From contig JAQXEE010000130.1 of NCBI GenBank assembly GCA_029251005.1, positions 3,328 to 67,327 on the forward strand: DNA of 64,000 bases. The letters are read 5' to 3'. Under the pieces are notes generated by a model. That model saw only the letters and a list, made by a program, of their open reading frames with translations. It was not told the DNA's origin and searched no databases. Of the stretch, positions 1 to 18,604 are shown piece by piece. Within the stretch, counting starts at the first letter, position 1; every line of letters begins with the position of its first letter. The position numbers and the translations under genes are program-made. The DNA comes from Flavobacteriales bacterium. GTDB taxonomy: Bacteria; Bacteroidota; Bacteroidia; Flavobacteriales_C; GCA-002722245.

Positions 1-1439
<1,439 letters not shown>

Positions 1440-8346: not shown

Positions 8347-9351
8347 ATGGCAACAGACGTTAATAAAGAGAAGTTAAAAGCATTACAAATGACGATGGAT
8401 CGTTTGGATAAAGCATACGGTAAAGGAACTGTAATGCGTTTAGGAGACGATACGACTCAAGATGTTGAAGTTATTTCATCTGGATCTATAACAGTAGATT
8501 TAGCATTAGGAATAAGAGGTTTACCAAAAGGAAGAATTGTAGAGGTTTATGGACCAGAATCTTCTGGAAAAACAACATTAGCGATTCATGCAATTGCCGA
8601 AGCACAAAGGAAAGGAGGTATTTGTGCCATTGTTGATGCAGAACACGCGTTTGACAGGTCATACGCAGAAGCATTAGGTGTAAATACTGAAGAGCTTTTA
8701 ATATCTCAACCAGATAATGGAGAACAAGCTTTAGAGATTGCTGATAATTTAATTAGCTCTGGAGCAATTGATTTATTAGTTGTCGACTCTGTAGCTGCTT
8801 TAACTCCTAAAGCGGAGATTGAAGGTGATATGGGGGATTCAAGAATGGGGCTACAAGCTCGTTTAATGTCTCAAGCGTTAAGAAAGTTAACAGCTACGAT
8901 TAAGAAGAGTGGAACTTGTATGATTTTCATTAACCAGTTAAGAGAAAAGATAGGAGTTATGTTTGGTAACCCTGAAACAACTACTGGTGGAAATGCATTA
9001 AAGTTTTATGCTTCGATTCGAATTGATATTCGTCGAATCGGTCAAATTAAATCCGGTGACGAGGTTGTTGGAAATAGAACCAGAGTTAAGGTTGTTAAAA
9101 ATAAATTGGCAGCGCCTTTCAGAAAGGCTGAATTTGATATTATGTTTGGAGAAGGATTCTCTAAAGTTGGAGAAATCATTGATATAGGAGTTGAAAAAGA
9201 GATCATTAAAAAATCAGGATCTTGGTTTAGTTATGGTGATACAAAACTAGGTCAAGGAAGAGATTCCGTAAAAGGATTGCTGAAAGATAATCAAGAATTA
9301 GCGGATGAATTGGAGGCTAAGATATTTGAAGCAATTGAGAAAGGTGCATAA
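8347..9351 (+). CDS. recA: recombinase RecA
   Basis: [11 protein letters not shown] Walker A, ...[13 protein letters not shown]..., 334 aa; unmistakable RecA. Confidence 0.95.
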
Positions 9352-14320: not shown

Positions 14321-14623
14321 TTATTTCAACTTTTTAAAACGAAAACAATCCTTCAGAAAGTTAAGGTGTCCTAAAATTCCTTTTTTTCGAATAAATGTAC
14401 CTGAAACCTCAATAATATCATCCTTATTAATCGCTTGTAAAAAATCTTTAGGTATTCCACTGCACTCAATTGAGGCGCCAAAAGCTTTGGCTTGTAAAAT
14501 CAATACACCTTCTTTGCTAACACCACTAGTTCTACCTTTTATTTTTATTGTTTTGTGATTGTATTTTTCATTCGCTTTAACTAAGTTCTTGATAATTTGA
14601 TACTCTTTTAGTAAATCGCTCAA
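14321..14623 (-). CDS. hypothetical 100-aa protein (possibly OB-fold)
   Basis: ORF only; no motif I can name with confidence. Confidence 0.35.
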   Translation of the reverse strand: MSDLLKEYQIIKNLVKANEKYNHKTIKIKGRTSGVSKEGVLILQAKAFGASIECSGIPKDFLQAINKDDIIEVSGTFIRKKGILGHLNFLKDCFRFKKLK

Positions 14624-14771
14624 ATCAATAGTAACGTCAGCTTTTTTTAATAGCCTCTACATTTTCGGTAATTTTACTTCCTGAATTAGCAGAATTTGAA
14701 TCAGTCGAACAAGAAGCCGTGACTAATAACGTTAAGAATGGGATAATGTGTTTCATAATTGTTTTTGATAT

Positions 14772-17700
14772 TTATAATACGGAAATAAATTCACCTATAA
14801 TTTTCATGTTTTCGACATTATCTTCTGTTATCACTATGTCTTTAAAGGAGGAGTCAAATGAATTAGGTTTAAGTTTAATTAATCGATGTTCCCAAGTCTC
14901 ATCTGTAATTTCAACCTCGCTAGTGTAAGTTTTAATGGTAAATGCTGAGTTAAAGTCAGGATCTTGAATGTCAAGGTTTTCAACCAATACAATTTTTCCA
15001 TTCCTGGATCCTCCTTGATATTCTTTGAATATACAGATAGCGCCGTTTGGTATCCTTCTGTTCATTGATTCCCCTTTTATTTCGCAAGCAAAATACCCTT
15101 TTTTGTTATATTTTTCGGGAGCATCAACCATGTCAAAGGACTTATCCGTTTGAAGTTCACTAAAAGACCCGGCTGCAGCATGAAAATTATATAGCGGGAT
15201 TTGATTTCTGTTTTCAAGTTGTATTACTTTAGGAGCAATTGGTTCCTTTTTTCTTCTTTCTAACAAGTAGTTATACATATTATCTGAAACGGGACTATTC
15301 ATTTTAAATGAAACACTAACAACAGAAACTAATTTTCCTGAGTCATTTCTCATTGTCCCTTGGGATGGGCTTTTTTCTATTGGTGTAACATCACCCATGT
15401 AATAAAAATCATTTTGATCCTTATTCTTTTTAATGAATAAGGGGAGTCGAATACTTCCGTATTTACCTAAGATTGATTGGACATCCTTACTGTCAATTTT
15501 CCTATTAGACTTTGACATCCATGAAAATGTTGAGTTATTTATGAATTCATCTTCATATTTAGTTGATTCTGAAATGTCGTCTTCTTTGTGATAATTTACA
15601 AAAATTGGGCAGTTTGTTTTACTATCGTTAACCAAGTATCCACCAACATTCTGAGCAACGGGATTAGAAGTGTAGTTTAATATTCTAAAAACATCTTTTC
15701 TAGAATATTTGGAATACAGAATAAAACCATCATTCCATTTACTTTTTGAGTAGTTTGTTTTAAAGTGATTAACTGAATACAAAGTATTATCAATAAGGAA
15801 GGATTTGAATATATCTTCTTTAAGGTTTTCTTTAAATTGAGTTGTAGGCGTTATTTTGTTGTCTTTTATTGTAATCAGATTTGTTTTATGAATTTCATTA
15901 ACAGATAATAATTTTTTGTCCTGTTTTTCACGAATGAATTTGAAGTTTAAATTATCAATTGCCGATTCAATTGTATTTATTGAACTAGAGATATCGAACT
16001 TTTCGAGTATGTCTAGTTGAATTTTTAAAACTGATGTCTCTCCCGTATTGATTAGATGCTCTAGAATAATAGATTCTTCAATTCTTTTTCCATTATTGAT
16101 TTCCTTTGAAAAGTACTCTAATAGTAAAGATGGTGGCTTTGGTATTTTGATTTGATTAGATTCAACTTTATTTACAAAGTTGAAATATGATTTTGAATAT
16201 TCAACAAAAAGAAATGGATCTCTTGTTCTTGTTTCTATAAAATCCATCATCATCGGTGTTTTTCCAAGTCGATTTTTTAAATAGGCATAATCCTCTTTTA
16301 ATTCTTTTAGGAGTTTCATGTTCGCATTATCAATAGATTGAAATATCTTTTCTTTTGATATTCTGTCAAAATTGATAGTTGAAGTCCCTGGAGTTTCTCT
16401 ACTGCCTTCTGATATAAGTTTTCTTAACCTGTCTTTATTATACGAAGAATCGCCATAAAGGGCAATTGGAATCAGGTAGTTATTACTATAATTACCAATG
16501 AAATCAATGACCGTTAAATAAGATTTTTCATCTGTTTTCCGTAGGCCTCGACCTAATTGCTGAATGAAAATAATTGCCGATTCAGTTGGTCTTAATAATA
16601 TTATTTGGTTAACCTTAGGAATGTCAATTCCTTCATTAAAAATGTTAACAGTAAGGATGTAATCTATTTTTTGATTAATACTATCTGATTCTAGTTTTTG
16701 AATAGCTAAACTTCTTTCTTCGTCACTGCTGTTTCCACTTAGAGCTAATGTTTTTAGTCCTGATTTATTCAGCTTTTCAGATAGTTTTTGAGCTTCTTCA
16801 TTTCTGTTACAGAAGATTAATCCACGAGTAATTCCATTATCAGATCCATAAAAATTGGCTTTATTAATAATTTGAAGAACTCTTTCATCTGAGGTTAGGT
16901 AATTAAATTCAGTTAAATCATCTTTTTGAGAATCATTGATTGTTAGGTCTGAAACTCCGTAGTAATGAAAAGGACTAAGCATTTCCTCTTCCATTGCCTG
17001 ATTTAGTCGGATTTCATAAGCTATATTATAATCATACAATTTGAAAATATCGTTTCCATCTGTTCTCTCAGGAGTCGCGGTCATTCCTAAAAGGAACTTA
17101 GGCGTGAAATACTCAATCAGGTTTTGATAGGATTGAGCACCTGCTCTATGAGATTCATCAATTATTATATAATCAAAATGATCCTTTTTAAAGGCTTGTA
17201 AATGTGTGTTCTTAGATATTGTTTGTACAGTTGAAAAAATGAAGTTGTTATCCAACTCCCTTTGATTACCTGAGTATAAACCCATTTTTTTTGATGGACC
17301 AAATATTTTTTTAAAACTTGACATCGCTGTTTTAGCAATGTTAAGTCTGTGAACCACAAAAAGAATTTTTTTTGGAGCAAATTGCTTTACATCAAATGCT
17401 GCTAAATAGGTTTTTCCAGTCCCAGTAGCTGATATTATTAAAGCTTTGTCCTTATTGCCTTTCCTAATGTTTTTTAAGCTATCCAATGCTTCTTTTTGCA
17501 TTGGATTTGGCTCAAGCTTTAACTCGGGTTGAATAGGAACTGTCGATTTAGATGATAGCCTTTGTTTGGAGTAAACCTCCCTGTATGCTAAAATATATTC
17601 ATTAGTAACTTTAGTACTTACCTCAAAGTCTTTATTAAATTCAGAAATGACTTTATTTGTTATGTCACTTGTTTTGAGTGCTGAAACTTGTAGATTCCAT

Positions 17701-18158
17701 TCTTTATTCGAAGCTAATGCGCTTTGTGTAAGATTACTACTTCCGATTATTAAATTGTAATATTTCGAAGTTTTAAAAATATAACCTTTAGAATGTGACG
17801 AATATTTTGTCGCAATCCTTAAATCAATATTCTTAAATTGTAGTAATCGTTCAAGTGCTTCAGGTTGTGTGAAATTTAAATATTGCGAAACTAAAATTTC
17901 GCCTTTAATTCCCTTTTCTTCAAGAGTTTTAAGAGTGTTTATTATTGTGGCTACACCACCAGTTGTAACAAACGCAACCGAAATTTTAAATGATTCGCAG
18001 TTATTAAATTCTGTTAGAATAGAAGTTAAAACTTTCTTTTTAGGAGTTTTGCTATTGACAAGGAGCTTTGGTTGAAAAAGTACTTCAGAATTAATATCTT
18101 TATCAACAAAGCCTGTTAAAATACTTTTGTTAAACTCTTGAAGGAAATCATCAGTCAT
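14772..18158 (-). CDS. 1128-aa multidomain protein: PLD/HKD nuclease-like N-terminus + SF2 ResIII/DEAD-like helicase + large uncharacterised region (consistent with the DUF3427 region usually found in PLD-helicase proteins) + C-terminal LexA/UmuD-like S24 self-cleaving peptidase domain
   Basis: HSKGYIF (HxK PLD motif); helicase motif I SATGTGKT, II IIIDESHR, III MTATPER, VI QQLGRGLR; C-terminus ...IPLYNFHAAAGSF...(34 aa)...IKGESM...NGKIVLV...FTIKTY resembles the LexA cleavage strand VAAGEP, GDSM Ser nucleophile and catalytic Lys. Confidence 0.85.
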   Translation of the reverse strand: MTDDFLQEFNKSILTGFVDKDINSEVLFQPKLLVNSKTPKKKVLTSILTEFNNCESFKISVAFVTTGGVATIINTLKTLEEKGIKGEILVSQYLNFTQPEALERLLQFKNIDLRIATKYSSHSKGYIFKTSKYYNLIIGSSNLTQSALASNKEWNLQVSALKTSDITNKVISEFNKDFEVSTKVTNEYILAYREVYSKQRLSSKSTVPIQPELKLEPNPMQKEALDSLKNIRKGNKDKALIISATGTGKTYLAAFDVKQFAPKKILFVVHRLNIAKTAMSSFKKIFGPSKKMGLYSGNQRELDNNFIFSTVQTISKNTHLQAFKKDHFDYIIIDESHRAGAQSYQNLIEYFTPKFLLGMTATPERTDGNDIFKLYDYNIAYEIRLNQAMEEEMLSPFHYYGVSDLTINDSQKDDLTEFNYLTSDERVLQIINKANFYGSDNGITRGLIFCNRNEEAQKLSEKLNKSGLKTLALSGNSSDEERSLAIQKLESDSINQKIDYILTVNIFNEGIDIPKVNQIILLRPTESAIIFIQQLGRGLRKTDEKSYLTVIDFIGNYSNNYLIPIALYGDSSYNKDRLRKLISEGSRETPGTSTINFDRISKEKIFQSIDNANMKLLKELKEDYAYLKNRLGKTPMMMDFIETRTRDPFLFVEYSKSYFNFVNKVESNQIKIPKPPSLLLEYFSKEINNGKRIEESIILEHLINTGETSVLKIQLDILEKFDISSSINTIESAIDNLNFKFIREKQDKKLLSVNEIHKTNLITIKDNKITPTTQFKENLKEDIFKSFLIDNTLYSVNHFKTNYSKSKWNDGFILYSKYSRKDVFRILNYTSNPVAQNVGGYLVNDSKTNCPIFVNYHKEDDISESTKYEDEFINNSTFSWMSKSNRKIDSKDVQSILGKYGSIRLPLFIKKNKDQNDFYYMGDVTPIEKSPSQGTMRNDSGKLVSVVSVSFKMNSPVSDNMYNYLLERRKKEPIAPKVIQLENRNQIPLYNFHAAAGSFSELQTDKSFDMVDAPEKYNKKGYFACEIKGESMNRRIPNGAICIFKEYQGGSRNGKIVLVENLDIQDPDFNSAFTIKTYTSEVEITDETWEHRLIKLKPNSFDSSFKDIVITEDNVENMKIIGEFISVL

Positions 18159-18546
18159 TACTAATTAGTTTATGTACAATTGGTAAATCTGCTACTGCCC
18201 AATCTAGAGCTGTAAGTTCTTCTTTTGAAAGCCATTTTTGATCAATATGCTCATTCAAAGTAAGTTTTCTACTTTCAACTTTTACGATGAAACTATGCAT
18301 CGTTAATTCAAAGTCAGGGTACTGGTGATTAACAGTTAAGTACAAATCTCCTACTTTAACATTAATATCTAATTCCTCTACTAATTCCCGCTGTAAAGCT
18401 TCTTTTTGAGTTTCTCCTGCTTCAATTTTTCCTCCAGGAAATTCAAATTTCTTAGAAATATATGGTAGTTTACTTTCTGCTCTTTGAACACAAAGTATTT
18501 TGTTCTCGTTTATTAATATAGCCGCAACAACTTCTATTTTTTTCAT
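18151..18546 (-). CDS. MutT-like NUDIX hydrolase (8-oxo-dGTP diphosphatase family), translationally coupled to the downstream PLD-helicase-S24 gene
   Basis: Nudix box GGKIEAGETQKEALQRELVEELDI; start placed at MKKIEVVAAIL; its stop codon overlaps the next gene's ATG (ATGACTGA). Confidence 0.75.
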   Translation of the reverse strand: MKKIEVVAAILINENKILCVQRAESKLPYISKKFEFPGGKIEAGETQKEALQRELVEELDINVKVGDLYLTVNHQYPDFELTMHSFIVKVESRKLTLNEHIDQKWLSKEELTALDWAVADLPIVHKLISND

Positions 18547-18604
18547 GAAGTTTTTTATCAAAGGATGAAGAAAAATCAAAAAGACGAATTAAATATAATA
18601 AAAA

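Follow-up and report, generated by a model that had tools for sequence, protein, structure and literature searches.

SauUSI is a modification-dependent restriction enzyme that shreds DNA (PMC7913695) and whose chain carries, in this order, a PLD nuclease domain, an SF2 ATPase, a coupler and an SRA-like reader (PMC3141236, PMC7913695). It is described as a single-gene system. The present analysis deals with a gene coding for a SauUSI-type enzyme that is extended at its carboxyl terminus by a Peptidase S24 domain, of the kind found in LexA, UmuD and lambda CI, and that is coupled to an upstream Nudix hydrolase gene. The two genes lie in a stretch of 64,000 nucleotides (the window) from a Flavobacteriales bacterium (assembly GCA_029251005.1, contig JAQXEE010000130.1, positions 3,328 to 67,327 of the forward strand); coordinates are window positions unless another locus is named. 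An initial annotation of this DNA had described the protein as a helicase ending in a LexA-like autocleavage signature.

In LexA and CI the S24 domain is part of a small repressor with a helix-turn-helix (HTH) domain, and in UmuD it follows an arm of 24 residues, whereas here it terminates a nuclease-translocase of 113 kDa. Bacteroidota run a RecA/S24-based SOS response, and their non-canonical LexA combines HTH_XRE with S24 (PMC8565304). This LexA shares with the protein described here the phylum and an S24 domain with a conserved Ala-Gly bond and Ser-Lys dyad. It differs in being a small repressor with an amino-terminal HTH, a partner found in only 3 of 84 members of the S24 subfamily to which the present tail belongs. 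AmaNI also joins a peptidase to a modification-dependent restriction enzyme, and its authors suggested post-translational regulation of restriction (PMC6765204); its peptidase is, however, a caspase domain (a cysteine protease), its nuclease is of the HNH type and it has no link to RecA or DNA damage.

Restriction enzymes and other DNA-targeting defences must spare their own host when its DNA is damaged, recombines or changes its methylation, and how they do so is understood only in a few type I systems, in which ClpXP or Lon acts in trans. ClpXP degrades HsdR in the process named restriction alleviation (PMC4231737, PMC11109961), and Lon proteases shut off restriction in P. aeruginosa (10.1101/2024.10.21.619520). 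Within the searchable literature (papers on SauUSI, reviews of the type I and type IV enzymes, a restriction-modification review of 2025 and a large Aravind-lab survey of conflict systems; subscription-only literature was outside reach) we found neither a restriction enzyme with an S24 domain nor a Nudix-SauUSI operon described, and the papers on SauUSI and the 2025 review of restriction biology are silent on both S24 and Nudix. Automatic annotation already records the combination, for example as "helicase/HKD nuclease/LexA" at JGI. The architecture is visible in databases and apparently unstudied.

A SauUSI-type enzyme with an additional carboxyl-terminal domain

The open reading frame (ORF) encodes 1128 residues followed by a stop codon (Table 1). 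Residues 5 to 965 align end to end with residues 4 to 951 of SauUSI (7clg_A; E 3.6e-221), and the protein scores 769 bits against the PADLOC model mREase_IV. The Pfam domains follow the order found in SauUSI: PLDc_2, ResIII (residues 214-365), Helicase_C (442-540) and DUF3427. Judged by its sequence, the protein is a complete modification-dependent restriction endonuclease of SauUSI type with an extra tail. The helicase of the initial annotation is present as the SF2 domain, and it is one part of an enzyme that also has the PLD nuclease and the DUF3427/SRA reader.

Four of the five residues of the SauUSI pocket for 5-methylcytosine (5mC), as named in PMC7913695, are kept: Y831, F841, I842 and W868 correspond to Y841, F853, V854 and W880. 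The fifth, M829, is replaced by G839. The conserved pocket is an indirect indication that the enzyme would cleave, in an ATP-driven manner, only DNA with 5mC or 5-hydroxymethylcytosine (5hmC). The two proteins also have in common that no methyltransferase gene adjoins them. SauUSI, however, ends at residue 953, while the present protein continues into a poorly conserved linker (residues 966-986) and the S24 domain.

Fold and catalytic residues of the S24 domain

Residues 988 to 1123 match PF00717 (Peptidase_S24) with 28.3 bits, above the gathering score of 23.3. Similarity to solved LexA proteins by sequence alone is marginal (profile E 0.47; hhalign probability 1.4%), and because comparison with solved S24 proteins at this level is almost blind a comparison of folds was needed. 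An AlphaFold2 model of residues 957 to 1128 (predicted local distance difference test, pLDDT, 78.5) was used in a Foldseek search whose top 36 matches were all LexA, lambda CI or UmuD'. The model and these matches settle that the predicted fold is the beta fold of the LexA carboxyl-terminal domain.

The residues of the autocleavage signature were confirmed by re-translation at the positions that the initial annotation had given. In an L-INS-i alignment with LexA, UmuD and CI, whose sequences were checked against known positions, all of them are in register. The predicted scissile bond A996-G997 falls on LexA A84-G85, UmuD C24-G25 and CI A111-G112. S1031 aligns with LexA S119, UmuD S60 and CI S149, and K1076 with LexA K156, UmuD K97 and CI K192. 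The initial annotation had ascribed LexA spacing to the whole signature, which is true of its first part: the distance of 34 residues from Gly to Ser equals that of E. coli LexA, while Ser and Lys are 45 residues apart instead of 37. The 8 additional residues are explained by two insertions specific to this S24 subfamily, one of about 8 residues ahead of the Lys strand and one of about 10 behind it, which together with the marginal similarity to solved LexA set the domain apart from LexA, UmuD and CI.

No HTH family of Pfam matches the 1128-residue protein at E 0.1 or better, as the initial annotation had anticipated. Lacking an HTH, and with 965 amino-terminal residues that are SauUSI-like, the protein is not a repressor of the LexA/CI type. 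Comparisons of sequence and of modelled structure all place it in the SauUSI family and its tail in peptidase family S24, and the tail is apparently an intact domain predicted to be capable of self-cleavage. The initial proposal that an S24 module has become a carboxyl-terminal appendage to enzymatic domains is thus supported by family, fold and conservation.

Conservation and distribution of the fusion

The best 120 relatives in the database all measure 1126 to 1161 residues and all have the tail. When these full-length homologues were aligned with the query, Ser1031, Lys1076 and Ala996 were each present in 121 of 121 sequences and Gly997 in 116 of 121. Non-conservation of these residues among homologues, which the initial annotation had named as evidence against its proposal, did not occur. 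The closest relative, from the metagenome-assembled genome (MAG) of an uncultured marine Flavobacteriales bacterium, is 87% identical.

When one genome per species was scanned for the pattern, 160 loci were recovered, which puts the fusion in at least 160 species, almost all of them in Bacteroidota (Flavobacteriales, Chitinophagales, Saprospirales, Cytophagales, Sphingobacteriales and Bacteroidales), and also in Balneola. A search with the carboxyl-terminal 172 residues returned short matches that could be taken for stand-alone S24 genes. Inspection of their context identified them as truncations at contig ends or as pieces of broken SauUSI-S24 genes, and the latter are misleading because the gene is split into two to four ORFs in several MAGs (L001/L007 3110-6573, L002 3752-6283, L015 2867-6243). 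These split genes could be pseudogenes or assembly errors.

The S24 subfamily as a recurrent carboxyl-terminal module

With the S24 domain alone as query, an exhaustive HMMER search retrieved 528 clusters (formed at 50% identity) with E 1e-10 or lower. The domain ends at most 15 residues from the carboxyl terminus in 126 of 128 complete matches, and PF00717 also matches 77 of 84 members. Residue conservation was counted over non-gap positions in 150 cluster representatives that are 32-71% identical to the query. The catalytic Ser is found in 138 of 139 and the Lys in 144 of 148. At the cleavage site, P1 is Ala in 112 and Cys in 9 of 121, P1' is Gly (111/122), P2 is Ala (115/121) and P3 is Ala, Val or Ile (117/121), so that about 90% of members have Ala/Val/Ile-Ala-Ala at P3-P1. 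The subfamily resembles LexA (VAA) in this respect, unlike UmuD (VQC) and lambda CI (VQA), which have Gln at P2.

The partners of the tail are overwhelmingly defence proteins that cut DNA or translocate on it. Its nuclease partners are SauUSI-like enzymes, XhoI (type II), type III Res, HNH and RE_endonuc; type I and type ISP systems contribute the HsdR carboxyl-terminal region, HsdS and the type ISP specificity region. The helicase partners are GIY-YIG joined to DUF2075/Schlafen-group-3 (Nhi/AbiO-like), NERD-UvrD and a DruE-like fragment. Partner frequencies are approximate, since many representatives are metagenomic fragments. Two loci place such a nuclease next to its modification gene. In one (L085 90-3033) an N6 methyltransferase gene is followed by an XhoI-S24 gene; in the other (L086 4117-9234) an N6/N4 methyltransferase gene precedes a type III Res-S24 gene, with a UvrD/PD-(D/E)XK gene upstream. 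The DNA of these loci has a guanine plus cytosine (GC) content of about 53% and therefore does not come from Flavobacteria.

In three Flavobacteriia loci a second S24-tailed gene stands beside the Nudix-SauUSI-S24 operon (Table 1). It codes for about 740 amino acids with a GIY-YIG nuclease, a DUF2075/Schlafen-group-3 helicase and S24, and has weak matches to Nhi, AbiO and PDC-S14. Recent shuffling of tails between these neighbours was considered and rejected, the S24 tails of adjacent genes being 46-52% identical and SauUSI tails from different genomes 62-65%. The low identity of adjoining tails indicates that those of the SauUSI-type enzyme and of the helicase are old separate lineages.

Searches of plasmid and phage collections for the subfamily gave almost nothing beyond one Halomonas chromid and one weak phage match. 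In Halomonas sp. PA16-9 (NZ_CP040452.1, L087 4962-7432; an unannotated replicon of 1.8 Mb) a DUF2075/Schlafen-type helicase ORF is followed by an S24 ORF that overlaps it in a different frame, and PIN_8 genes adjoin the two. A fusion broken by a frameshift would explain this pair, as would a genuine two-gene form. The phage match is a hypothetical protein of Lacticaseibacillus phage R9.1 (OP807346.1 37856-38137) with weak S24 similarity (37.5% identity, E 6e-9).

Outside the dyad several features are near-invariant in the subfamily: the motif G-G-S-R-N-G-K, an insertion with D-x-Q-D-P-D, and W1089 and H1091 in the second insertion. Contact with RecA, contact with the partner and binding of a ligand are possibilities for their role.

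The Nudix hydrolase partner

The Nudix gene is the first of a two-gene operon and its end overlaps the start of the restriction gene by 8 nucleotides (ATGACTGA). At all 67 related SauUSI-S24 loci that have a full-length gene and enough upstream DNA, the gene immediately upstream encodes a Nudix homologue (E 1e-47 to 1e-81); it has the same orientation, and the two frames overlap or abut. This constant coupling is a further difference from SauUSI. The protein matches the uncharacterised PADLOC candidate PDC-S07 (E 1.1e-47), and its scores against NCBIfam MutT (92.8 bits) and NudG-like PRK10546 (89.8 bits) are about equal, both being below the cut-off.

E. coli NudG prefers 5-methyl-dCTP, and on this analogy the Nudix protein may have a role in sanitising the pool of 5-methyl-dCTP and 5-hydroxymethyl-dCTP. 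It would act as a second safety device, destroying the modified nucleotides salvaged from shredded DNA before they enter the host chromosome, where their incorporation would make the host itself a target. The invariable partnership raises the idea that cells with modification-dependent nucleases sanitise their nucleotide pools in this way.

Possible function of the S24 tail

The Ser, the Lys and the Ala(Cys)-Gly bond are near-invariant in proteins with diverse partners, which argues for selection on self-cleavage and not for a mere structural role. As one small module serves structurally unrelated enzymes, a mechanism independent of the partner is needed, and the simplest effect of cleavage that has this property would be the creation of a new carboxyl-terminal degron. 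We tentatively favour, at a likelihood slightly under even, the reading that the S24 tail is a self-cleaving fuse triggered by RecA, whose cleavage exposes a degron and leads to removal of the nuclease by ClpXP, that is, restriction alleviation encoded in cis.

According to this reading, the SauUSI-type enzyme, whose translation is coupled to that of the Nudix hydrolase in a two-gene defence operon, would carry a catalytically competent S24 autoprotease on a flexible linker. RecA filaments on single-stranded DNA would accumulate, for example once the enzyme starts to cut the chromosome of its own host, and would stimulate intramolecular cleavage at Ala996-Gly997. The S24 core of 132 residues would be detached and the enzyme left with the end ...HAAA-COOH (...Y-A-A-A in the family consensus), resembling the V-A-A of cleaved LexA and the L-A-A of the ssrA tag. 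The nuclease would then fall to ClpXP-type proteases. Restriction would in effect be alleviated in cis and the cell protected against autoimmunity; should the host DNA become methylated, the fuse would limit the harm that a DNA-shredding, modification-dependent enzyme does to its own cell.

We infer self-cleavage and its RecA-filament trigger from the S24 fold and the kept residues, the carboxyl-terminal location, the DNA-acting partners, the presence of recA and the S24/RecA signalling of the phylum; inactivation of the enzyme by cleavage and the degron step are likewise deduced. LexA offers a parallel, its cleavage unmasking recognition signals for ClpX according to the passage of PMC10584840 that cites Neher et al. 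2003. Classical restriction-modification systems with their own methylase have no obvious need of an activating switch and a known need of alleviation. Shutting restriction off by proteolysis once DNA has been damaged is established both as a need and as a phenomenon. The proposed outcome would be that of alleviation by ClpXP or Lon (EcoKI HsdR; P. aeruginosa), in which proteolysis clears the nuclease once damage or recombination has put the host chromosome in danger. There a protease acting in trans recognises the stalled enzyme and no sensor is built in, whereas here the sensor would sit in the restriction protein itself. The likeness is functional and presumed, not one of family membership.

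Several points weigh against the favoured reading. The S24 active site in part imposes small residues ahead of the scissile bond, which makes the Ala-Ala end weak evidence for a degron. The HsdS and type ISP fusions would lose modification as well, unlike in classical alleviation. SauUSI dimerises through its nuclease domains (PMC7913695), and loss of a carboxyl-terminal dimeriser need not inactivate it. The sequence similarity to solved LexA proteins is weak, as given above, and the insertions around the Lys strand might alter how, or whether, RecA is engaged.

Conservation of the dyad and of the scissile bond fits equally a switch of opposite sense, in which the tail would keep the nuclease-translocase latent, by autoinhibition or sequestration, until filaments of RecA or of a phage recombinase trigger a releasing cleavage like that of UmuD to UmuD'. 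Activation through S24 cleavage has a precedent in UmuD (PMC8565304), and latency could benefit a modification-dependent enzyme whose shredding of DNA (PMC7913695) makes it dangerous. A trigger would also be useful to the Nhi/AbiO-like helicase, DruE-like and NERD-UvrD systems, which have no mark distinguishing self from non-self. Many partners, however, are ordinary restriction-modification nucleases that adjoin their own methylase and are normally constitutively active and safe, and restriction must hit incoming DNA before replication intermediates or RecA filaments build up. Nor is it evident by what structural means, common to all partners, a single small tail could inhibit enzymes of types I, II, III, ISP and IV. 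We regard activation as less likely than the fuse, but as a serious rival to it.

Cleavage might also be absent or incidental, the S24 domain serving mainly to dimerise or oligomerise the enzyme or to tether it to RecA filaments or recombination intermediates. The S24 carboxyl-terminal domains dimerise LexA and CI (PMC10584840), several SauUSI molecules pile up on DNA (PMC7913695), and the conserved GGSRNGK, W1089 and H1091 lie outside the dyad. Such a role is improbable, as a binding module would not keep Ser in 138 of 139, Lys in 144 of 148 and Ala/Cys-Gly at 32-71% identity with many partners, and the change of P1 from Ala to Cys in 9 members is the exact variant of self-cleaving UmuD. The least probable reading, a timer in which slow, spontaneous and RecA-independent cleavage sets the lifetime of the enzyme or yields its mature form, could draw on the reported RecA-independent LexA-like protein IrvR and on insertions near the Lys strand that could change RecA dependence, but the well-studied members with a LexA-type cleavage-site region are all stimulated by RecA and the strong bias to DNA-cutting partners would be left unexplained.

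To return to the RecA-triggered fuse, restriction enzymes of each major type bear this tail, a recurrence suggestive of a switch, so far undescribed, that is built into the proteins and links immunity to the sensing of DNA damage. In its widest form the proposal is that the tail is a portable proteolytic fuse, independent of its partner, on enzymes of types I, ISP, II, III and IV and on helicase-nuclease defence proteins, with the Nudix hydrolase as an additional safeguard; this is a possibility to which we give distinctly less than an even chance. A known proteolytic switch would thereby appear in a new setting, implying a new mode of restriction control. If true, a RecA-responsive self-cleaving domain inside the nuclease would solve the problem of self-killing in a new and simple manner, for enzymes of all restriction types and in several phyla. 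Besides transcription (LexA, CI) and translesion synthesis (UmuD), the SOS signal would then also govern immunity, by direct control at the post-translational level.

The locus and neighbouring genes

Table 1. Coordinates of the operon, of domains and predicted catalytic sites of the restriction protein, and of related features (window positions unless a locus or residues are given)
Feature	Position	Strand	Basis
SauUSI-like type IV restriction endonuclease with C-terminal S24 domain	14772..18158	-	7clg_A alignment, PADLOC mREase_IV, Pfam architecture
Nudix hydrolase gene, 142 aa, MutT/NudG-like, PADLOC candidate PDC-S07	18151..18579	-	Pfam NUDIX 62 bits
PLD-family (HKD) nuclease domain, residues 67-177	17628..17960	-	Pfam PLDc_2 37.9 bits; SauUSI nuclease domain alignment
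SF2 helicase-like ATPase/translocase, residues 214-540	16539..17519	-	ResIII 145 bits, Helicase_C 54.8 bits; ATGTGKT and DESH motifs
DUF3427 (SauUSI coupler and SRA-like 5mC/5hmC reader), residues 682-965	15264..16115	-	Pfam DUF3427 256.8 bits
Variable charged linker, residues 966-986	15201..15263	-	weakly conserved columns, 120 homologues; pLDDT <50 at model residues 17-22
Peptidase S24 (LexA/UmuD/CI-like) domain including cleavage-site region, residues 987-1128	14775..15200	-	Pfam, fold, conservation
Predicted scissile bond Ala996-Gly997, motif IPLYNFHAAA/GSFSE (cut at the slash)	15168..15173	-	conservation and alignment to LexA/UmuD/CI
Predicted nucleophile Ser1031 (G-E-S-M)	15066..15068	-	conservation and alignment
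Predicted general base Lys1076 (T-I-K-T-Y)	14931..14933	-	conservation and alignment
recA, likely co-protease, outside operon	8347..9351	+	Pfam RecA 458.9 bits
Second S24-tailed gene	L071 384-2603; L080 5-2198; L060 1-639 (cut by contig end)	+; -; +	
Subfamily-specific features	query residues 1050-1054, 1061-1068, 1083-1091		S24 subfamily alignment

The window contains recA, so that the likely co-protease is encoded in the same genome. The S24-tailed gene is 5.4 kb from recA, and the same arrangement is found in the close relative L003; this proximity is probably a coincidental synteny among housekeeping genes. No methyltransferase gene is present near the operon, where the neighbours are the Nudix gene, SelO, LpxK, a tRNA_anti-like gene, an RF-1 domain protein, NIF3 and a Zn-ribbon protein.

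No signal of horizontal transfer stands out, the GC content of the operon (0.28-0.32) matching that of the window (0.328). There is no evidence for control by LexA through an SOS box: the Bacteroidota LexA motif CTAA-N5-TTAG has 4 matches in the window, where 2 are expected, and none is upstream of the operon. One of the matches falls within coding sequence, at 16745.

Directly downstream of the restriction gene, a lipoprotein gene with a tRNA_anti-like OB fold (about 14321-14756, minus strand) is split by a frameshift at a run of A (AAAAAAAG); possible explanations are an error of sequencing, decay to a pseudogene and a tract subject to phase variation. Its orthologues in L003 and L005 are unbroken and code for 144 amino acids.

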